Part shown: positions 25,335 to 36,443 of the stretch, one piece after another
Layout: each line of letters opens with the position of its first letter
Numbering within the stretch: the stretch's first letter is position 1
Assembly: GCA_019058245.1 (NCBI GenBank)
Contig: JAHPZJ010000015.1
Span: 62,581-126,580 of the forward strand
Direction of reading: 5' to 3'
Length of the DNA: 64,000 nucleotides
Source: Promethearchaeota archaeon
GTDB lineage: Archaea; Asgardarchaeota; Lokiarchaeia; Sigyniarchaeales; SOKP01
Position numbers and translations under genes: made by a program
The notes under the pieces: model-generated
Seen by the model: the letters and a program-made list of their open reading frames with translations, nothing else
The model's database searches: none
Told to the model about the DNA's origin: nothing

Positions 25335-28300
25335 ATGAATATTCCCCAGAAGAAAAAGTCAATTTCTATAATAATCGCGATAAATTGTATTATTTTATTT
25401 TCAAATATTATTAATATATCTATTTTTAATCTGTCTTCCAACGAAGGTGGTTCAGATGAGGATCTTGAGGTTAAAATTCCCGATAATATCAAACTTGCTA
25501 ATAATAATGATCCAGAAATAGAAATTGGATCTATTGAAAATCGAGAAGGAAAAATTTTTTGTGATATAAGTACTTCAGATACTGATTTATATGTTAATCG
25601 ATATCAACCAGGATTAAGTATTCAACCCGAATTGTTTCTTCAAAATTGGAATATAACACACGCTAGAATGCAATTTGAGAATATTTATGCCTTAAATTAC
25701 ACAAAAAATATTGAAACAGAATATTCAGAATATATTGTGAGTTCTGAAAAAGGGCCTAAATACATTTATCAGATGTTTTCTGTAGAATTGAGTCAATATG
25801 TTAATAATGTGAGTATTTTTATTTTAGACGTCTTTAATCCTGCAAATTATACAGATTGGGAAATTGCTATTGTAAATTGTTCTAATAGTGGGACACCTAA
25901 TCAATTTGAGACACTGGGAAAATTGAGGAAATCAGTACCAATTGGAATGAATGCAAAGCCTCATTGGGAAACCTTTGATTTTAAAAATTCTGATGGTTCT
26001 ATTTATTTAAATAAATCTAATACATATAGAACAGTAGAAAATGAAATAAATAAATATTGGTTTGCAATAAGGGTAGAGATACCTTGTGGAAATCCTGCTC
26101 AAAACCTAAAATTTCTATATTTCAACCCAGATGGAGATACTTATTCCGATATAGGAGAAGGAGAAACATTTGCCCAATCCCCAGAATTTACTTTTGATAA
26201 TTATACTTTAAACTATGTTAAAGAAAATCGTACTATAAATGGAACAATTATTAAAGGAGGAATAGAATCTTTTAAAAATTGGACTGATGATAATAGATAT
26301 ATAGTAGAAAATGAATCACGATTTGTTAATATAACAACTAGATTTGAGTTAGAAGAATTAAAAAACTCCAGATTGAATTGGTCTCAATTAAATAAAACCC
26401 TTTTATGGGGTATTAAGCATAATGATCTTAATTGGTGGATTAGAGATCATTATAAATATGTTTATAGTATTGACTTAAATCTTGCAATAAATGTAAGTAA
26501 TAAGGATGGGATTAAAAATGCTAATTTAACTTTTTTTAATTGGATAGATAAAGTTTGGAATACATCTTATGTTATCTCTTTTGAAAATTTAACACAAACA
26601 GATGAAATGTTAATAAATTATAGAATAAAAGATCCAATTACTAAAGCAATTTACATAGTAGCAGGTATTAATAGTAAAGAAAATCAAAATAATTCTCTTA
26701 AATTTAAATTTGAATATGAAAGCAATGGAACAAGTGATTTTAATGTTTCAATTAATCAATTTACTGTGGAGATTGGAGAATTAGAAGAACTTACAACAAT
26801 CCAACCACATGACCCCCAAATACAAAAGCTCTATTATTGTAATAATGTTACTCAATCAAATGGGACAATGGATTTTGAATCAGACGGAACTATTGAAGCT
26901 TTGAAATTTAATAATGATGATAAAAGAATTCAAAATAGAGCAGAAACAAACAATATTTCAATCGAATTTACCTTTGATGTTTTAACTGAGCTAAACAATT
27001 CACTATGGGATGTAGACTTCTATGATTGGATAACAGTTAATCCATATCCTATAATTCCTATAACGGAAATTAGGGTACAATCGAATGTTAGCATCAGTCA
27101 TAAAAATAACATCACCTTAGCAGTTTTAGAATTCTTTAAAGGAAACAATACGAGCGAATTTCTTTCAGATGAGCAAAATGATGCGTCTTGGATTCGTGTT
27201 AGTGAAACTAATAGAACTTTTGCTTTTACCGAAGAACAAACAGAACTGGTATATCTAGATGCCGGTTTTACATGGATTTTCTTACAATTTCTAAATAGGA
27301 GCAATAATAATACTATTAAAATGCGGTTAAGATATCAAACTAATGTGTCTGATGGAGACCCTGACTGGGCATTTAATGTATCAATAAATCATGTGAGCAT
27401 TAATTTTTATATACAAAATGCTTATTCTTCTGATATAGCTTCGAAAATAGGTTTAGGTTTGAAAAGTGCAACTTTATCTCCAAGTCTTATTAAGATGCAA
27501 AATTTAGGTTTAAATATCACCGATAATGGTTATCAAAGAGGAATTTGGGAAGCCGATATAAGTGATGGATCTCCAACTGAAGCTTTTTTCAATTTTAATG
27601 TGACATCTATTTGGCCAGAAATTATTTTTGATGTTAGTGGAATTTATACAATAGAACATTCTCAGAGTTATATTTGGGAATATAAGTTAGATGATTCTGT
27701 ACAAAAGGTTCTATGGAATGTAAGTTCAGATATTTCCTACTATGATTATATTGATTATACTACTTTGCAGAATAGTCAGGGTTTACAAATTATTGTTCCA
27801 TCAGATTGGGAATTAATGGAAATTTATGATTGTTCTGTTTCCCCGCCCAATCCCAATGGAGGGTGGTTTTCAACCAGTCAATCTGCTGGTCATTTTAACA
27901 CAATAACAGTATATAATATATATGATGGTTCTTGGAAGATAAGCTTGAATTCATCAAAAAGTACACTCTTATTGAACGTAAATTCAACCAGTACATACAT
28001 TGATAAAATGATAAAAACAGACATCGATATTAAAGAAAATTATGGGGGGAATATATATTTAAAAATTTATAACTCTAGCTCAGCCCTTATTTTTAGTCAA
28101 ATTACTACACTAAATGAAAGTAGCTTAGAACATTCAGCTTCTTATTATTGGGATATTTTTTCAACAACAACATCAGGGGGAACTTATTACTTAAAAGCTT
28201 TTTGGATTTTATATAATGAAACACATACGTTTCTGGCGTTAAATATAACAGAAATTGTGGTATCTAAATATAAAGTTGCTCTAGAAATACTAAATAATCA

Positions 28301-29378
28301 AGAATTATCTAAAACCCATATTTTTGGAGACAATATCCTAATCAAAGGAAAATTAACTAATAATGAAACAGGAGCGGACATTGATGGGGAACTGGTTATA
28401 GGTAAGGTTTATGATAAAGATCAAAATTTGATAGATAATTCTTTACGTGATATTACCAATAACGAAGGAATAATCCATATTGAATATCATTTGCCAAGTG
28501 AAGTTCGCTCCATCTCTATTGAATTAGTGTATAATACATCAGGTACATATTATTCTGCTGGACAAAACTTGCAAACTCTCAAAATAAATCAAATATCTCA
28601 ACTAGAAAATGATCTCAAGGAATTCCTTAAATATTTACCATATATAGTAGCTATTTTAGTAATTGCTCTAGCTACCGTAGTGGGGTTGAGATATAGAAAA
28701 ATCAAATTAAGAAGAATTTGGGCAGGAGAAGCTATGATTTTAGATGATTTACTAAAAATATCCCATGTTATGATTATTCATAAAGATGTGGGTGTTTCGA
28801 TATATGATAAACAATTTTCATTAGAGGATATTGATGCTGATCTAATTTCTGGCTTCCTTCATGCAATCTCACAATTCAGAAGTGAGATTAAGAAAGGAAC
28901 TAGCCCTGATGAGGGCAAGGGATTTGAAATGGATTATGGAGATTTTAAAATTGTGCTTAGCGATGGAAATTATATTAGGACGGCATTAATTCTTGATGGA
29001 ATACCTTCAGAAAAACTTAAAGAAAATCAACTATTATTCACAGAAGAATTTGAGAAGACATTTGAAACTCTATTGAAAGAATTTGATGGTGATGTAACAG
29101 AATTTAGAAAATCAGACGCGCTAATTGAGAAGTATTTCAATATAAGTTTAACTTACCCACTTCAATTAGCAAAACATTATGAACTTATTAAGGTTAAAGG
29201 ATTAGATAAAGCTCTTGTTGAAGTTGCTGACCAAATTCAAAAAGAAAAAAAGTTCTTCTTTACTTCGAACCTTTTAAATTATGCTTTAGCGGGAAGAAAA
29301 GCCTCTCGCGATGAAATAGTAAGTATTATAATTGATTTAAAAAGAAGAGGAGTAATAATTCCCGCATTAGAGGAATAA
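25335..29378 (+). CDS. Large single-pass membrane protein with N-glycosylated ectodomain and cytoplasmic longin-like domain
   Basis: Signal/anchor, many NxS/T sequons, TM near 28641-28690, then VMIIHK..GV.IY...DADLISGFLHAISQF longin-like pattern. Confidence 0.8.
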   Translation: MNIPQKKKSISIIIAINCIILFSNIINISIFNLSSNEGGSDEDLEVKIPDNIKLANNNDPEIEIGSIENREGKIFCDISTSDTDLYVNRYQPGLSIQPELFLQNWNITHARMQFENIYALNYTKNIETEYSEYIVSSEKGPKYIYQMFSVELSQYVNNVSIFILDVFNPANYTDWEIAIVNCSNSGTPNQFETLGKLRKSVPIGMNAKPHWETFDFKNSDGSIYLNKSNTYRTVENEINKYWFAIRVEIPCGNPAQNLKFLYFNPDGDTYSDIGEGETFAQSPEFTFDNYTLNYVKENRTINGTIIKGGIESFKNWTDDNRYIVENESRFVNITTRFELEELKNSRLNWSQLNKTLLWGIKHNDLNWWIRDHYKYVYSIDLNLAINVSNKDGIKNANLTFFNWIDKVWNTSYVISFENLTQTDEMLINYRIKDPITKAIYIVAGINSKENQNNSLKFKFEYESNGTSDFNVSINQFTVEIGELEELTTIQPHDPQIQKLYYCNNVTQSNGTMDFESDGTIEALKFNNDDKRIQNRAETNNISIEFTFDVLTELNNSLWDVDFYDWITVNPYPIIPITEIRVQSNVSISHKNNITLAVLEFFKGNNTSEFLSDEQNDASWIRVSETNRTFAFTEEQTELVYLDAGFTWIFLQFLNRSNNNTIKMRLRYQTNVSDGDPDWAFNVSINHVSINFYIQNAYSSDIASKIGLGLKSATLSPSLIKMQNLGLNITDNGYQRGIWEADISDGSPTEAFFNFNVTSIWPEIIFDVSGIYTIEHSQSYIWEYKLDDSVQKVLWNVSSDISYYDYIDYTTLQNSQGLQIIVPSDWELMEIYDCSVSPPNPNGGWFSTSQSAGHFNTITVYNIYDGSWKISLNSSKSTLLLNVNSTSTYIDKMIKTDIDIKENYGGNIYLKIYNSSSALIFSQITTLNESSLEHSASYYWDIFSTTTSGGTYYLKAFWILYNETHTFLALNITEIVVSKYKVALEILNNQELSKTHIFGDNILIKGKLTNNETGADIDGELVIGKVYDKDQNLIDNSLRDITNNEGIIHIEYHLPSEVRSISIELVYNTSGTYYSAGQNLQTLKINQISQLENDLKEFLKYLPYIVAILVIALATVVGLRYRKIKLRRIWAGEAMILDDLLKISHVMIIHKDVGVSIYDKQFSLEDIDADLISGFLHAISQFRSEIKKGTSPDEGKGFEMDYGDFKIVLSDGNYIRTALILDGIPSEKLKENQLLFTEEFEKTFETLLKEFDGDVTEFRKSDALIEKYFNISLTYPLQLAKHYELIKVKGLDKALVEVADQIQKEKKFFFTSNLLNYALAGRKASRDEIVSIIIDLKRRGVIIPALEE

Positions 29379-30760: not shown

Positions 30761-31567
30761 ATGTCAAAAAGAAAATTTTGGACAGTAGGTCAGATTGATG
30801 CAACTGGTGTACGAGGTCCTCATGAGAAAGAGCTTGAAGATATAAGCAACGCAAAATACGAGCTCTTTGTAGATCTGGATCTTACTATTCTAAAGGAAAT
30901 AGTGAATAATGAATTAGGAGGTAAAATTGAAAATATTGGATTTAATGAGGACTGGACAATTACTATTGAAATGTTTCCAGAAGTCAATATCCATATTGCT
31001 TATTCATATTTTGGAGATGAGTTTGGGGATGGTATTGAGGCTGAATTTAAGTATTATTTCTCAGGTGAGCATGTTACTTGGGTTCCTGGTGAAGATAGTG
31101 CGACTTTTATTGATATTACTATGGACTTTATTGAAAGACTATTAAAAAAAGAAGAACCTTTCGAAAAAAATTATGATAAAAAAACAGAATTGATGGAAAA
31201 AGTTTTAGTACAGAGAAATGAGCCATTCTCCTTTCTAAGAGAGGAAAAAAAAAATGAATTAGCTGAATTTATAGGAGGAAAGGTGTGGAAAACCACAGAA
31301 GGTTGGCGAATGAAACGCGAAATCTTTCCTCAAATATTTATAGAACTCATGTGGGATAAAGAAAAAGGGCTTGGTATTTCCTTTTCAGGAGAAAAATTAA
31401 CCAATATAGGTAGCTATCATTTGGAACTTATTGGAATTTTCCTGATCAATCACATTCTTCGATTTATTACCATAAAGAATGAAAATCAAAAACTTCCTGA
31501 CATATGCTATGTTATGTTTTCAAGAATGTATACAAAAGAAAAAGGATGGGAACATAGAAAAAGATAA
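30761..31567 (+). CDS. Hypothetical protein with two internally similar alpha/beta domains
   Basis: Repeated GGK....W....FP...I unit; 11 bp downstream of the methyltransferase gene. Confidence 0.7.
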   Translation: MSKRKFWTVGQIDATGVRGPHEKELEDISNAKYELFVDLDLTILKEIVNNELGGKIENIGFNEDWTITIEMFPEVNIHIAYSYFGDEFGDGIEAEFKYYFSGEHVTWVPGEDSATFIDITMDFIERLLKKEEPFEKNYDKKTELMEKVLVQRNEPFSFLREEKKNELAEFIGGKVWKTTEGWRMKREIFPQIFIELMWDKEKGLGISFSGEKLTNIGSYHLELIGIFLINHILRFITIKNENQKLPDICYVMFSRMYTKEKGWEHRKR

Positions 31568-31570
31568 AAA

Positions 31571-32365
31571 TTAATTTTTAATGGTTTTTCGTCTTATTGA
31601 TATTACACTAATTAGAATTCCTATAAGGGTTAGTATTATATAACTATTACCAAATGGAATTCCATTTTCAGTATCACCACCATTATTATTACCATCATCA
31701 CTCCCATCATCATTGCTACCATTACCATCATCATCTCCACCATCGTCAACGCCATTATCAGGTAGATCAGAATCCATTATCATTTCAAGAATTACTGTAC
31801 TAAAAATCGAAGATACCCAACTAAATTTTGTTAGAACTCCGTTTTCATTATAGGTATATATATATTTAAAATAATAAGTACTAGAATCTAATGTTAAAGT
31901 TGTATCTGATATAGTCATGCTATCAATAACACTCCCCGAAGTTGAAATAAAATATTCCCCAATCAGAGTAAGATTTAATGGTGTAGGAATCACAAAAATC
32001 CAACCATATAGAAAAAATATTCCAATTTGATATTGTATTTCATCAAGAGTTTCATTAAAAGTTAAAAATAACCCATTAATACGTGTTGACCAAGTATCTC
32101 CTGTACTATTATAATAATCTAATCTAACATCCATATTTAGATATCCTCCAGCTCCATAAATATTTTGAACTGATAAATTATATTTATCACCTGTTGTAAA
32201 AGGCGACCCCGCTGAATGTTTAGTCACTATCCAATAATATTTATCATTAATATCTACTGATACAGTTGAATCGCCTATGGTAACAGATCTAGTTATTTTA
32301 GAAAATATCAATAAAGCCATAATGATAACAGTAATACTACTTAAGATTTTTTTATATCTCATCAT
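31571..32365 (-). CDS. Secreted/surface protein with Asp/Gly/Asn linker and C-terminal anchor (CTERM-like sorting signal)
   Basis: Signal peptide; D/G/N low-complexity linker; IPFG motif, TM helix and RRK tail. Confidence 0.75.
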   Translation of the reverse strand: MMRYKKILSSITVIIMALLIFSKITRSVTIGDSTVSVDINDKYYWIVTKHSAGSPFTTGDKYNLSVQNIYGAGGYLNMDVRLDYYNSTGDTWSTRINGLFLTFNETLDEIQYQIGIFFLYGWIFVIPTPLNLTLIGEYFISTSGSVIDSMTISDTTLTLDSSTYYFKYIYTYNENGVLTKFSWVSSIFSTVILEMIMDSDLPDNGVDDGGDDDGNGSNDDGSDDGNNNGGDTENGIPFGNSYIILTLIGILISVISIRRKTIKN

Positions 32366-32460
32366 TATCGACTATATATAGATTGTATTTAAATAATTAT
32401 TATTTCAGAATTCTATATAAGTTTATTTTTCAATTTTGAAAAATTGGTAAAAAAAAGTGG

Positions 32461-33021
32461 TTAAGATGCTGTCCAGAGTATAGACCTTCCCTTTTTATCA
32501 GACCGTTTAATTTTCCTTTCATTCTCTAAATCTGACATAATTTTCCAAATTTGAGAATTACTTAATTTGAAGTATTTTCTCAATTCTGGAGTGGTCATCT
32601 TGGTATCATTTAATAAATTCGGGATTAGTCTTTTAATTTCTTCAATGGTATTTTCATCAGAGTCATCAGCATCTTTATCATCTGGATCGTCAACTTCCAT
32701 TTCTGTTATGATTCTGGATGCGATCTTATTTAATTGATTAATATTATTTTCAATGGCATTCTTAGGTTTCATAAAAAGACAGCATAGTTCTAAATCTTTA
32801 GGAAATGCAACAATATAGAATTTATCATATAATATTGCTCTAGGTTTTTTAACTGATTCATTTCCACCTCGAAATGCTAAATAAAAATTCATCGCAAAGT
32901 CGTCTAAATTTACACCATTATTCGTATGTGAAAACTCTTTTTTCCATTTAAGAAATGGACCATCAATCATATCAAACCCAATTAATGCCGCTCCAAACAT
33001 TTCATTTTCAGTAAAATTCAT
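32461..33021 (-). CDS. Longin/uDENN-like domain fused to winged HTH
   Basis: N-terminal GFDMIDGP motif, acidic linker, C-terminal TTPELRKYFKLSNSQIWKIMSDLENERKI...KGR wHTH; ATGA-like 4-nt overlap with the GTPase gene. Confidence 0.65.
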   Translation of the reverse strand: MNFTENEMFGAALIGFDMIDGPFLKWKKEFSHTNNGVNLDDFAMNFYLAFRGGNESVKKPRAILYDKFYIVAFPKDLELCCLFMKPKNAIENNINQLNKIASRIITEMEVDDPDDKDADDSDENTIEEIKRLIPNLLNDTKMTTPELRKYFKLSNSQIWKIMSDLENERKIKRSDKKGRSILWTAS

Positions 33022-33545
33022 TTATTTCTTCTCCTCCTGATTGCTATTTTATCTAATTCTTTTGTAATAATATTCATCATTTTTAATCGTTCTGAAGGAT
33101 TAATAGCAGTTAATCCATAAGTTTTAATGTGAAGTATATCTTCAACTCTTTTATAATCCATTCGCCCTTCACTTTTCACCAAATCTTGCTTATTTGCGAT
33201 TGCAATGATAGGACAATCTTTTCCCACAAAATGACACGCATAATTAATGAGGTCTCTTGAACTTAAAACATTTCTAGGAGTTGAGTCAGTAACAATAAAA
33301 ATAATATCAGAACCTAAGAGATAATCTCTAGAATAAGTTTTAAGATAACTCTGTTGACCCCCTAAATCCCATAATCTCAAGACATAATCATCCAGCTTAA
33401 TAGTTTTCAAATCCAGACCATGTGTTGGAAAGTATAATCGATTTATTTCATTTTTTGATAGAAGTTTTGCTAAAGTCGTTTTTCCTGTAGCAGGATATCC
33501 TATTAAACTCACTTTCGCCAACTTATCTATTTCAGAACTCAACAT
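33018..33545 (-). CDS. Arf-like small GTPase
   Basis: GYPATGKT, PT.G, WDLGGQ, ANKQD, TA. Confidence 0.9.
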   Translation of the reverse strand: MLSSEIDKLAKVSLIGYPATGKTTLAKLLSKNEINRLYFPTHGLDLKTIKLDDYVLRLWDLGGQQSYLKTYSRDYLLGSDIIFIVTDSTPRNVLSSRDLINYACHFVGKDCPIIAIANKQDLVKSEGRMDYKRVEDILHIKTYGLTAINPSERLKMMNIITKELDKIAIRRRRNK

Positions 33546-33562
33546 TTCAATTCTTAAAATTC

Positions 33563-33587
33563 GATGATTCTTTAATAAAGAATGATC
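33563..33587. promoter_or_regulatory. Palindromic operator overlapping the likely TATA box of the GTPase/longin-wHTH operon
   Basis: GATGATTCTTTA-A-TAAAGAATGATC, 12-bp arms with one mismatch, 18-42 bp upstream of the ATG at 33545; reads TTTATTAA on the minus strand. Confidence 0.5.
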
Positions 33588-33666
33588 AGAAAAAAAATAT
33601 GAATCTGAATAATACCTCGATATTACGTGTGTATTGTCATGACACTATTATAATAAAAAAGAGAAG

Positions 33667-34449
33667 TTATGTATTAGAGGTTTTATCCCCTATTTTCTTA
33701 AACTTAATTTCTACTAGATCGTTTTCTTTAGTTCTTAAAAGATATTTTTTCATAAACTTAGGTAGTAAAAATCCACCATACCAACAAATAGCACTAATTA
33801 TTAAAATTAGTCTTGTAATAATTATTGCAATCTCATTAAGAGGAATTGCCAAATCTAATAGTGATCCAACTGAAAATGTAATATATGCAACTACTAACAG
33901 TTTACCTTTGAGTTTCACCTCTGGATCTTTAGATTTTAAGGAAAGGTTAGCAAACAAAAAACCTGTAAATACAACAATTACTAAAAATGATATAAGAAAT
34001 ATCATTATGAAAGAATTATACCTAACATCAACAGGTGGATTTAGTTCTCCTATTAACTTTGGTTTTACAAAAAGGAATGTAAAGAAAAGAATTTCAAAGA
34101 TTGAGCCATATAGAGAAAAAACCAATAAGATAAGTTTCCGTTTTTCAGTATATAAAAATTCTGTAAAAGCCATTAACCAAACTATAATTGCAAAAGGCAC
34201 GAAAATATTCCCTATAGTAAAATAAGCTTCTGGAGATATTCCAACACTGTTAAATAAAGCTACTAAAAATGATATGGAAGAACTCCACCATGGACAACTA
34301 ATAAATATCCAAGTCATTCCAACCAATAAGTAAATCCTTTCTTTATATTTAAAGTATCTAGAAAGAATAATAACACCAACTAATAATGAAATAGTTACAA
34401 ATACAAGAGAGCAAACCCCGTTAACGATGTCTAAAGGATTTAATGACAT
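33667..34449 (-). CDS. Seven-transmembrane protein of unknown function
   Basis: Seven hydrophobic helices counted by eye; basic C-terminal tail. Confidence 0.75.
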   Translation of the reverse strand: MSLNPLDIVNGVCSLVFVTISLLVGVIILSRYFKYKERIYLLVGMTWIFISCPWWSSSISFLVALFNSVGISPEAYFTIGNIFVPFAIIVWLMAFTEFLYTEKRKLILLVFSLYGSIFEILFFTFLFVKPKLIGELNPPVDVRYNSFIMIFLISFLVIVVFTGFLFANLSLKSKDPEVKLKGKLLVVAYITFSVGSLLDLAIPLNEIAIIITRLILIISAICWYGGFLLPKFMKKYLLRTKENDLVEIKFKKIGDKTSNT

Positions 34450-34547
34450 TTTTTTGAGTATGAATTCGTTTTTTATAATAAATAAAAATTAAGAGATTGG
34501 ATTATATAAATATTAAAGCTTTTTAAGATAATTCTAAACTTTATACT

Positions 34548-36443
34548 TTAAATATTAAATAGAAATATCAATAATATTAACGAAAAGAAGGTAGGACCAA
34601 TTAAACTAATTGTCAATAAACTTTGGGATACCTTTAAGCATTCCTTAAGAGTGTCAATAATAGCGTTAAAATATTGTGGATCCCCCCAAATTTTCACTTT
34701 TTCAAAAGAGTTTTTATACATAAACTCAACGGGCTCTAAATCTTTTTCTGCTTCTTTAATTAGTTTGGCCAGCTTTTCAAGAATAAAATCAATTTTAATT
34801 TTATCACCTATAGGCGAATAACCTCTACTAGAAAATTGTCTAGCAACAGTATGTGAATCAGAAGTGGTGATTTCTCCCTTTTCAATGCCACGATTTTGGA
34901 GCATATTTAAAATAAAAGATCTGATTTCTAAAAAAGCATTATTTCCATCAAAATGAATTAAAATAGTTTTTTGATTATTTATTGCATTTTTAAATAAATG
35001 AACTACTATTCCTCCAAAACCAATTCCATCTTTTTCAGAATATTCTTTAATAGGATCCTTAGCAACCCCATACAGCATATTGGCTTTTTCATTATCCTCT
35101 GGTTTATTATTCACAAAAAATTTCTCAGCAACATTAATTAAATCATTTGCTTCTAAAGAATCCGATTCAATTAATATTTCATCTCCAATTATTGAGTTGT
35201 GTGAATCAATTACTATAACATCATTAAATCCTTCCTTTTGCGCTATATTACGAATATTTTCACCAATTTCAAGTTGAATATCATCAGAAGGTAAAGGGTG
35301 TCTTGTTAAAAAGATAAGTGGGGTGTGGTCAATTACCATCCCAATTAGCTTCGCTGAATTTGAGATTTTCCTTGAAAAATCAACAATTTCCGAACTCCAT
35401 TCTAATGAATCATTCTCAGAAACTCCATTTATATCTTCTTTAATACGGGTAATTACTTTATCAACTTCAACTTGAGATGTCAAATTTTGAGCATGAGTAT
35501 TTGTAGTATGATAAACAGTGGTACCTTGTATATTAGCGAATGCTTTATAAATATGTTCAGGTAAATCAGAAGATCCACATGTCTTAAATGGTCCAAAATG
35601 AATATTTGGAACTATAAATAAACCTTTTATTTTTTTTGTTTCTTTACTTCGAATTATTAGATACTGAATTTTTACATCAGATTGGATACCAACCCTATCA
35701 AAATAGCTTTCTATAAGTTCATCGTTTCCATTAGTTAACATAGAAAGAACAAATGCCCTGATGAAAGGGTATCCTCCCATCCCTGTTGCTTCTTGAAAAA
35801 TGTTACTAACCCGAAATAATCCTCTCCTATAAGGATAAGCGAATATTAAAGCACATACAACAAAAAAGAGTAGAGCTTTAATAAAGAATAAAATATCAAA
35901 AACTTGGAACATAAGGATACTGTAAAGAATAATTGTGGATATAGGTTGAATTAAGGATAAAATTAAATATCCGGGACGTCCAACCGTAGTAAATGAAAAA
36001 TAGATCACGAAAGCTACAATATATGAAAGAATAGTTCCTAATATTAAAAAAACTTCTTGTATTTGAACATCATTCAAAAAAATTGCCAATATTTGTCCAA
36101 GCATATATGTAACTTGAATTACTGCACTGAAAAAGGCATTTATTTGAATGGACCATCCCTTTGGGGGGAGTTTTAGAATAGGAGCTCTATTTGAATAAAG
36201 TAAAATTGCAAAAAGACTTCCAATACCAGATGATATTAGAAAGAGAAAGACAAAACGGAAGAAATGAAAGAATTCAAAATAGGTGGAACCTATAAAATAA
36301 TGTAATAATAGTGATATGAAACCGAAAATAAATGGTGTAATAAAAAAAATGGAATATGCTAATCTTTTTGATGAAAAATATTCCATATACGTAATTATTC
36401 CTGGTATTTGTCGAGATGGTTTTTTTCTTATTATCATAAACAA
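34548..36443 (-). CDS. DUF2070-family archaeal membrane protein
   Basis: N-terminal TMs, HFGPF...GSS.LP, H...H, DSHN, DGNN, TSDSH, C-terminal TM. Confidence 0.85.
   Translation of the reverse strand: MFMIIRKKPSRQIPGIITYMEYFSSKRLAYSIFFITPFIFGFISLLLHYFIGSTYFEFFHFFRFVFLFLISSGIGSLFAILLYSNRAPILKLPPKGWSIQINAFFSAVIQVTYMLGQILAIFLNDVQIQEVFLILGTILSYIVAFVIYFSFTTVGRPGYLILSLIQPISTIILYSILMFQVFDILFFIKALLFFVVCALIFAYPYRRGLFRVSNIFQEATGMGGYPFIRAFVLSMLTNGNDELIESYFDRVGIQSDVKIQYLIIRSKETKKIKGLFIVPNIHFGPFKTCGSSDLPEHIYKAFANIQGTTVYHTTNTHAQNLTSQVEVDKVITRIKEDINGVSENDSLEWSSEIVDFSRKISNSAKLIGMVIDHTPLIFLTRHPLPSDDIQLEIGENIRNIAQKEGFNDVIVIDSHNSIIGDEILIESDSLEANDLINVAEKFFVNNKPEDNEKANMLYGVAKDPIKEYSEKDGIGFGGIVVHLFKNAINNQKTILIHFDGNNAFLEIRSFILNMLQNRGIEKGEITTSDSHTVARQFSSRGYSPIGDKIKIDFILEKLAKLIKEAEKDLEPVEFMYKNSFEKVKIWGDPQYFNAIIDTLKECLKVSQSLLTISLIGPTFFSLILLIFLFNI

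Follow-up and report, generated by a model that had tools for sequence, protein, structure and literature searches.

The locus described here raises the question of whether a eukaryote-type small GTPase can be wired to DNA through a partner protein in an archaeon. It lies in a stretch of 64,000 nucleotides, called the window below, from a Promethearchaeota archaeon (SOKP01; assembly GCA_019058245.1, contig JAHPZJ010000015.1, positions 62,581-126,580), whose own genome is labelled G000. The window is AT-rich, with a G+C content of 26-32%. A first-pass annotation had singled out three co-oriented genes, encoding a seven-transmembrane (7TM) protein, an Arf-type GTPase and a 186-residue protein with a longin-like N-terminal domain and a C-terminal winged helix-turn-helix (wHTH). 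It had proposed that the GTPase switches the attached DNA-binding domain, possibly on input from the 7TM protein. The 186-residue longin-winged-helix protein is named LW in this report. The GTPase gene and the gene of its translationally coupled, cognate LW form a two-gene operon with a promoter of its own. We put at about even the chance that the two proteins are a cognate GTPase/longin pair that is wired to DNA and tied to a cell-division regulon. No description of the fusion, of the operon or of the link to ftsZ was found in the literature searched.

Conservation of the gene pair

All three genes are on the minus strand in the list of open reading frames (ORFs), as had been noted. The GTPase, of 175 residues, is encoded at 33018-33545 and LW at 32461-33021. 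The stop codon of the first and the start codon of the second share the tetranucleotide ATGA at 33018-33021, which is the 4-nt overlap described earlier. Both ORFs are real genes and not chance ORFs: LW has 463 database relatives and the GTPase passes the Pfam Arf cut-off.

The arrangement was compared in 301 genomes of the phylum, which were searched with an LW-family profile, and in 50 loci fetched from them. The profile matches 102 of the 301 genomes, including 64 of the 68 in the family to which the window belongs and six of the seven in the sister family. Both genes are present in 43 loci. In 42 of them a GTPase gene lies immediately upstream of the LW gene and in the same orientation, and the gene pair is conserved in several Asgard families, as the proposal of a functional module had led one to expect. 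All loci of the families designated f1-f4, f11, f12 and f18 have the adjacent pair, even where both proteins are only 31-38% identical to those of the window. In the single exception (locus L039, family f17) the GTPase gene is on the other strand, at a distance of about 3 kb. The two genes are closely joined: the 41 junctions that could be measured all fall between -26 and +15 nt, and 22 of them are the 4-nt overlap. The adjacency is kept wherever the LW examined has a C-terminal extension, and also in one locus (L040) where only the N-domain is present. Consecutive locus tags are likewise given to the pair in the Loki's Castle metagenome.

It is important to consider this pairing against the GTPase content of these organisms. 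The window's own genome has about 70 small-GTPase loci above the Pfam Arf cut-off, many of them within ORFs of 300-1100 residues, and its small-GTPase complement is expanded and often multidomain. With so many GTPases available, a conserved specific partner is informative. Moreover, Tran et al. (PMC10933270) reported that the GTPase genes of MK-D1 are generally not in operons with roadblock or longin genes, so that the GTPase-LW pair stands as an exception.

The Arf-like GTPase

The GTPase sequence contains the P-loop GYPATGKT, switch I FPTHG, the G3 motif WDLGGQ and the G4 motif NKQD. The WDLGGQ and NKQD motifs quoted in the first-pass annotation, together with FDMIDGP and the acidic linker of LW, were all found in the translations. 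The protein scores 61.8 bits against Pfam Arf (E 7.6e-17, cut-off 22.3), followed by Roc, Ras and then, barely, Gtr1/RagA. Read from the translation, the Arf-type features are the PTxG of switch I, the WDxGGQ with its catalytic Gln retained, and NKQD. The Arf-type assignment is confirmed by the Pfam match above cut-off and by the G1-G4 motifs (GxxxxGKT, PTxG, WDxGGQ, NKQD). The best solved relatives are Arl3, Arl2 and Arl8, with E-values from 6e-15 to 5e-11. Two solved structures of ArfR, 8oul and 8ouk, give an E-value of about 4e-10 and do not surpass eukaryotic Arf1. Near-identical proteins carry the source name 'ADP-ribosylation factor-like protein'.

The N-terminus is short. Only 15 residues precede the G-x4-GKT of the P-loop in the window's protein and 4-11 in the orthologues of loci L036, L040 and L035, so that the N-terminal amphipathic helix of Arf proteins is not conserved; judged by this length it was not found in the GTPase, and there is no Gly2. 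The short N-terminus suggests that the GTPase is probably soluble.

A variation is seen in the partner GTPases of two distant loci, L035 (1930-2409, minus strand) and L040 (4355-4837, minus strand), where G3 reads DLAGH in place of DLGGQ. This puts a His in the place of the catalytic Gln, as in GTPases of the Sar1/SR-beta type.

The longin-type domain of LW

LW belongs to an unannotated family. It has 463 relatives at E<=1e-3, and the best 120 of these, at 74-100% identity, are all unannotated 'hypothetical' proteins from metagenome-assembled genomes of the Promethearchaeota type. Just 29 representatives of the family occur in a set of 1.84 billion clustered proteins, and LW matches no Pfam or NCBIfam family. 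The chain consists of three parts, all on the minus strand: the longin-type N-domain (32692-33021), an acidic disordered linker of residues 111-122 (32656-32691) and the winged helix-turn-helix of residues 123-186 (32464-32655).

The structure of LW was modelled with AlphaFold2 from a 19-row alignment, giving a predicted local distance difference test score (pLDDT) of 77. A second model, of residues 1-118 from 28 rows, agrees with it. In both, DSSP assigns the N-domain strands 8-17 and 21-29, a helix 39-51, strands 62-64, 69-75 and 78-84, and a helix 94-110. All of the 50 best entries in a structure search with this domain are longin or roadblock GTPase platforms, with Z from 10.2 to 7.1 over 93-110 aligned residues. 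The highest is the TRAPP longin 7e2c_A (Z 10.2, 107 residues, 3.0 A), followed by the lokiarchaeal Asgard longin 8yqg (Z 9.7), the TRAPP longin 3cue_A (Z 9.6), MP1-p14 (Z 9.4) and MglB bound to MglA in 3t12_C (Z 9.1). Mon1-Ccz1, CPLANE, the sigma and mu adaptins and Ykt6/VAMP7 are found at lower Z inside the top 50, as is FLCN-FNIP2 (6ulg_N, Z 7.2). Foldseek gave weak matches (best E 3.6e-3), consistent with a longin fold. The N-terminal longin-type fold that had been suggested is thus supported by the whole of the top 50, and the longin/roadblock fold class of the modelled domain may be considered secure.

Within this class, the topology of the models is that of a longin and not of a roadblock. 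Only a three-residue turn precedes the first strand, with no helix, and roadblock chains align from about their residue 15, which leaves their N-terminal helix unmatched. The same order of elements, without a helix before beta1, was described for longins by Levine et al. (PMC3747258). The model has one long C-terminal helix, where canonical longins have two. No longer, fused forms of the N-domain were found in the search, which is weak evidence. The linker that follows, DDPDDKDADDSD, has D or E at eight of its 12 residues. Its residues 111-121 have pLDDT below 50, and both its length and its sequence vary among homologues.

In family f21 the N-domain-only homologue is divergent from a gene for a conserved 143-residue protein (L043:4574-5005, plus strand; L045:4678-5109, plus strand; L050:3287-3718, minus strand). 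The start of this protein (MAIRNLYVFK.SGLLLFH...) resembles the first strand of a sigma-adaptin or longin-type domain, and the arrangement in f21 may be a longin-longin rather than a GTPase-longin pair.

The GP motif

The loop between beta1 and beta2 of LW carries the motif F-D-x3-G-P at residues 16-22 (32956-32976, minus strand), in which D17, G21 and P22 are invariant. Together with P60 these residues are unchanged in 28 homologues, down to 19% identity, and Tyr47, Phe50 and Gly53 are nearly so. A recent study (PMC12290439, 2025) described a GP motif at the boundary of this loop and beta2 that is common to the eukaryotic longins acting as GTPase-activating proteins (GAPs) and to some Asgard longins. 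It is present in C9orf72, SMCR8, FLCN and NPRL2 and absent from FNIP2, NPRL3, the adaptins, TRAPP and the DENND longins; the Asgard GTPase family that would be the client was left open. The position and spacing are the same in C9orf72, with W33-D34-x3-G38-P39 (PMC12290439), and in LW, with F16-D17-x3-G21-P22.

The beta1-beta2 loop, the end of the first helix (F50, G52, G53), P60 with residue 61, and the beta4-beta5 turn are expected to lie together at one end of the sheet. This placement follows from the sheet topology, and the same end holds the catalytic pocket in GAP longins. LW may be a GP-motif longin that works like the GAP longins, most like C9orf72, although it is not a demonstrated member of that group. 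A matched pair encoded in one genome, consisting of one of about 70 GTPases and one GP-motif longin, makes the client question of PMC12290439 directly testable with a pair of small, soluble proteins.

The winged helix and its replacements

The C-terminal domain (residues 123-186) is a three-helix winged helix in the AlphaFold2 model. Its structural matches by VIA include PH1932 (Z 10.2) and DNA-bound NolR (Z 10.1), and with the LW family profile HTH regulators of archaea and bacteria are matched at E-values of 1e-3 to 2e-3. The window's own LW is below threshold against the Pfam HTH families (FaeA, 0.072). The distant full-length homologues P0128-P0130 pass the Pfam cut-offs, with 31.7 bits for HTH_DeoR, 32.6 for HTH_11 and 32.0 for HTH_5/ArsR, and also for HTH_24. 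The winged HTH recognised in the first-pass annotation is therefore upheld both by Z of about 10 to DNA-bound regulators and by these family matches. The domain is strongly basic, with an isoelectric point (pI) of 9.8, and the Pfam matches of the homologues place it among regulators of the DeoR/ArsR/MarR type.

The family is not uniform in its C-terminal region. The homologues in families f12 and f18 (L035:1343-1933 and L036:3986-4555, both on the minus strand, P0140 and P0144) have another module, containing ...IKGLGPKR..., with faint helix-hairpin-helix (HhH) signals (IMS_HHH, E 0.13; the HhH region of PolX, E 0.39). In the N-domain-only forms that stand beside a GTPase (L040, P0146) the chain closes with a poly-arginine tail.

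The promoter of the operon

The interval between the 7TM stop codon and the GTPase start codon (33546-33666) is 121 bp long, as reported earlier, and the suggestion that it holds a separate promoter is borne out by conserved boxes inside it. In an alignment of 29 same-family loci, an element ATAATAT-TTA-GATATTATCC-AGATTCATAT ends about 51 nt before the GTPase start, and its position is fixed whichever gene lies upstream. The element consists of two boxes, both on the minus strand of the window. Box A (33607-33626) is an inverted repeat that reads GTAATAT-CGAG-GTATTAT in the window; its family consensus is ATAATAT-n4-ATATTAT, and relative to the start codon of the GTPase it is placed at about -71 to -81. 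It is a palindrome, since both strands score at the same place. Box B (33596-33608), (C)CAGATTCATATT, is nearly invariant in the 29-locus alignment, with information content near the maximum. About 24 sites like box B occur in G000, several of them 14-20 nt before start codons, and box B is possibly a promoter element of the type of the B recognition element (BRE) and TATA box.

A third feature, a 25-bp near-palindrome around TTTATTAAA (33563-33587, minus strand; arms of 12+12 nt, 92%), is not palindromic in the relatives. It is genome-specific, and only a core like TTCTTAATAA is conserved. The full element of box A with box B is unique in G000, with a position weight matrix (PWM) score of 39.3 against 19.5. 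This uniqueness is not evidence for a private autoregulatory operator, because the assembly of G000 is 76% complete and without ftsZ, and that interpretation was withdrawn. A reading of the box as an RNA hairpin was dropped as well, since the variation of its arms is not compensatory. An Rfam scan of 32300-34600 gave nothing credible.

The box shared with ftsZ

The exact composite TAATAT-n3-G[AG]TAT[TC]A[TC], expected about 1.2 times per Mb, was located in other genomes. It lies upstream of ftsZ-1 in four of five same-genus genomes, at -58 to -78, a position comparable with -71 to -81 at the GTPase operon, and among these five genomes it is also upstream of one ftsZ-2. Scanned genome-wide, the composite has 4-7 matches per genome and 2-3 for the reversed control, and ftsZ-1 is the most recurrent target. 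Counts of 8-mer half-sites were too permissive for this purpose, as 25% of all upstream regions hold two or more.

A PWM of box A, built from the GTPase-operon sites alone, was also applied, with 2,550 upstream regions of G000 as background. The empirical P is 0.0008-0.011 for the regions upstream of ftsZ-1 (four of four genomes) and 0.0008-0.005 for those upstream of ftsZ-2 (five of five). In other families the values for ftsZ are 0.003 (f3), 0.0035 (f4) and 0.09 (f2).

The strongest single result for the ftsZ link comes from a complete genome of 4.2 Mb in family f18 (G041). Here a lineage-specific, bipartite variant of the box, ATTTCGACA-n17/19-GTCTTTAAA, occurs exactly twice, with none in the control. 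One site is upstream of a cdrS-like ribbon-helix-helix (RHH) gene and ftsZ, and the other is upstream of the GTPase-longin operon, from which ftsZ is only about 8 kb distant. The RHH ORF (L068:1157-1378, plus strand) encodes 73 residues (...YPNRSEVIRIAIRDLL...) and lies 24 nt upstream of ftsZ, a cdrS-ftsZ arrangement known from other archaea (PMC7439475). In G009, from a third lineage, the sole other exact site is inside an arginyl-tRNA synthetase gene. Taken on sequence evidence, a conserved palindromic promoter box is common to the operon and to ftsZ, and also to cdrS-ftsZ in a distant family. Through the shared box, a GTPase switch of eukaryotic type comes to stand beside the cell-division regulon of archaea.

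Two further sites were recorded. The sole other exact box-A composite in G000 is on contig C17 at 19234 (L067:935-951), about 65-82 nt upstream of a conserved ORF of 47 residues (MELFEEEVEIYNSKMRLL...) that belongs to no family. Site and ORF both recur in a same-genus genome (L095, G207), and the regulon may extend to this ORF. In one same-genus genome (G177) a 220-residue protein with a sub-threshold RHH_1 match (E 0.002) is encoded at L091:1520-2182 (plus strand), directly downstream of an exact box-A composite.

The 7TM gene and other neighbours

The 7TM protein has 260 residues (33667-34449, minus strand) and seven hydrophobic segments in a Kyte-Doolittle scan, and it matches no Pfam or other family. 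Its gene lies upstream of the operon in 19 of the 21 assessable loci of the window's genus. It is absent from all eight loci that represent other genera of the family, and from all 20 loci at a greater distance. Four of the other-genus loci (L013, L027, L028, L030) have a DUF2070 gene directly upstream of the GTPase, while in the window DUF2070 is found just beyond the 7TM gene (34548-36443). This suggests that the 7TM gene was inserted within this one genus, and it lies outside the conserved unit. A conserved role for it is not supported.

On the other side of LW, a protein of 264 residues is encoded at 31571-32365 (minus strand), between LW and a conserved convergent gene. A hydrophobic segment at its N-terminus is combined with an acidic stretch rich in Gly and Asp, and at the C-terminus a hydrophobic anchor precedes basic residues. 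The protein has no Pfam family and is confined to the window's own genome and one relative (L010, 52% identity). The convergent gene (30761-31567, plus strand) encodes 268 residues without a Pfam family above cut-off; it adjoins the operon in nearly all same-family loci, at 58-73% identity. Further away, at 25335-29378 (plus strand), is a receptor-like protein of 1347 residues whose cytoplasmic tail has no Pfam family. A comparison of the LW family with this tail by hhalign gave a probability of 0.3%, that is, no detectable relationship.

Proposed mechanism and alternatives

The arrangement favoured here is that of a cognate pair acting on DNA. LW would dimerise through its longin domain, since all known longin/roadblock platforms dimerise. 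The GTPase would dock on the face of LW that bears the GP loop, with LW serving as its regulator, in a GAP-like manner, or as its effector. The palindromic box would be occupied by the paired winged helices, both in the promoter of the operon itself and in promoters of the ftsZ type. In this way the nucleotide state of the GTPase could be coupled to the expression of cell-division genes, with autoregulation.

Several observations weigh against this reading. The most diverged N-domain-only homologues (families f10, f21 and f20) have no GTPase gene within about 2.6 kb. G000 itself, 76% complete, has no FtsZ/tubulin match, so that the ftsZ link was assessed in other genomes. Orthologous promoters are not independent, and the ftsZ evidence therefore amounts to about four independent observations. 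In f18 the shared box is kept though the C-terminus of LW differs and is faintly HhH-like. The factor that binds the box could be an RHH protein of the CdrS/CdrL type, and not LW.

The remaining difficulties concern the affinity with uDENN and GAP longins that was claimed in the first-pass annotation. This affinity is upheld as regards the invariant D-x3-G-P loop, but not by other markers. No arginine is invariant among 28 sequences of the LW family: in place of R51, homologues have K, N, Q, M or L; at position 61 most members have R or K, and others M, L, Q or T; and the beta4-beta5 turn has K in the window's LW and R, H, D, E or V elsewhere. Neither Pfam NPR2 (PF06218) nor Folliculin (PF11704) is matched by ten N-domains at E<=10, or at the locus, and the NPR2 cut-off is reached in none of the 301 Asgard genomes. 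The TRAPP longins and roadblocks are structurally closer than the GAP longins, with Z 7.2 for FLCN-FNIP2 against 10.2 for TRAPP. These values have to be read with some care. Large insertions in the eukaryotic GAP longins may depress their Z, and 8fw5_G, a chain of 160 residues in a GATOR1-Gtr-Lam complex, reaches Z 8.1-9.2 with the LW N-domain. C9orf72 also lacks an arginine finger, and the missing arginine in LW does not exclude a C9orf72-like role.

The cognate-pair reading can be extended further. In the extended form, LW would be a surviving archaeal form of the longin-winged-helix architecture from which NPRL2/NPRL3 arose and, more broadly, a relative of the GP-motif GAP longins with an Arf-type client. 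Together the two proteins would make up a transcription factor gated by the GTPase, and this factor would recognise the box common to its own promoter and those of ftsZ/cdrS. If true, a eukaryote-type small-GTPase switch would directly control FtsZ-based division in the closest prokaryotic relatives of eukaryotes. The extended form is considered clearly unlikely.

The main alternative is that the C-terminal module is a DNA or nucleoid tether for the longin platform and the GTPase cycle. The pair would then be a cell-cycle-regulated effector, for example in the coordination of nucleoid and division, and another factor would read the box. This explanation draws on the interchangeable nature of the module, which may be a wHTH, a faintly HhH-like domain (f12, f18) or a poly-Arg tail, the last two being typical of non-specific nucleic-acid binding. 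It also accounts for the persistence of the shared box in f18 in the absence of the wHTH, and a candidate reader is at hand, since the RHH proteins CdrS and CdrL are known regulators of archaeal ftsZ loci (PMC7439475). However, a wHTH of the DeoR/ArsR/MarR regulator type is not what a plain tether would suggest, and a palindrome next to the promoter of the operon itself is in keeping with autoregulation by a wHTH dimer. In addition, the sequence of the box changes in the lineage where the C-terminal domain of LW changes, as expected if LW reads the box. On balance the tether appears rather unlikely.

It may also be asked whether DNA is involved at all. LW could be purely a GAP or guanine nucleotide exchange factor (GEF) of the NPRL2/NPRL3 type for the Arf-like GTPase, with the winged helix as a protein-protein module as in GATOR1, ESCRT-II and the cullins. 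NPRL2 and NPRL3 indeed combine a longin with wHTH repeats (PMC3747258, PMC3521125), the GP motif is held in common, and the winged helices of ESCRT-II and cullins also match that of LW, at Z of about 8.5. A weak, sub-threshold lead in the ESM Atlas (score 0.78) is to an Asgard cluster with Pfam NPR2 in 19% of its members. The winged helix of LW is nevertheless strongly basic (pI 9.8), its sequence groups with prokaryotic DNA-binding HTH families, a palindrome is conserved in the operon promoter, and there is no invariant arginine finger. A role as a regulator of the GTPase alone is for these reasons quite improbable.

Autoregulation, with a sensor domain at the N- or C-terminus, is common among the wHTH regulators of archaea, and LW might be an ordinary autorepressor of this kind. 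Its longin-like domain would then be the sensor, for a small ligand or for some other protein, and the GTPase would simply be co-expressed without touching it. The absence of a neighbouring GTPase from the most diverged N-domain-only homologues would agree with this. Against it, the top 50 solved relatives all come from GTPase-regulating, GTPase-linked or trafficking complexes, the translational coupling persists between families whose proteins are only 31-38% identical, and in the GAP longins of eukaryotes the loop that is invariant here forms a lining of the GTPase pocket. Such an autorepressor is very improbable.

Finally, a cascade in which the 7TM protein feeds the GTPase, as a proto-form of a G-protein-coupled receptor (GPCR), G protein and transcription factor, had in its favour only the co-orientation and proximity of a gene that is upstream throughout most of the genus (19 of 21 loci), and this attractive but unsupported proto-GPCR reading is corrected here as hardly credible: it is largely refuted by synteny, since the 7TM gene is confined to the genus and DUF2070 or other genes take its place outside, the conserved promoter boxes lie between it and the GTPase, the 7TM protein has no Pfam or other family link, and the GTPase has no membrane-anchoring helix.

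Comparison with known systems

The cognate pair proposed here shares features with four groups of known systems and is identical to none of them. The nearest structures are the TRAPP longins of the Bet5/Trs23/Trs20 type and the Asgard longins and roadblocks 8yqg, 9jq8, 9jue and 7yh1, with Z 9.0-10.2 over about 100-108 residues. The TRAPP longins lack the GP motif (PMC12290439), and none of these nearest structures is fused to a DNA-binding domain, unlike LW.

The operons of the MglA/MglB type (PMC4316618) are alike in that a small GTPase is combined with a partner of the roadblock/longin superfold, and MglB in complex with MglA matches the LW N-domain at Z 9.1. Here the GTPase is of Arf type, the platform lacks the N-terminal roadblock helix, platform and wHTH are in one chain, and the organisms are Asgard archaea, not bacteria or methanogens. 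The sole precedent for a link between a small GTPase and a wHTH is in the bacterial Group 3 MglA systems, which have a receiver-like and wHTH neighbour; this link is predicted only (PMC4316618). The CdrS/CdrL-ftsZ2 module (PMC7439475) resembles the present system in its connection to ftsZ at the level of the promoter, and the same bipartite box is found in f18. CdrS and CdrL are, in contrast to LW, ribbon-helix-helix proteins without a GTPase partner.

A further comparison is with the eukaryotic GP-motif GAP longins, C9orf72-SMCR8 acting on Arf, and FLCN-FNIP and GATOR1 (NPRL2-NPRL3) acting on Rag, and with the Asgard longins of 'FLCN/SMCR8-type' described in PMC12290439. These have in common with LW the longin fold and the G-P at the start of beta2. 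C9orf72-SMCR8 is alike also in its Arf-type client, which is the client predicted for LW. The eukaryotic complexes are heterodimers of large subunits, while LW is the product of a single small gene and presumably a homodimer. LW has no DENN domain, no invariant arginine finger and no Pfam NPR2 or Folliculin match. The known GAP longins act in lysosomal nutrient sensing, whereas the promoter box of the LW operon is common with ftsZ.

The order of domains is also that of NPRL2 and NPRL3, each of which is a longin followed by wHTH repeats (PMC3747258, PMC3521125). They have two or three wHTH domains and LW has one, of the prokaryotic regulator type. Liu et al. described Asgard NPRL2-like longins fused to two-component domains, and the LW operon is not mentioned in their text. 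The longin-wHTH fusion was treated by Zhang et al. (2012) as arising on the eukaryotic stem. LW differs from this picture, in that the longin-wHTH architecture exists in archaea.

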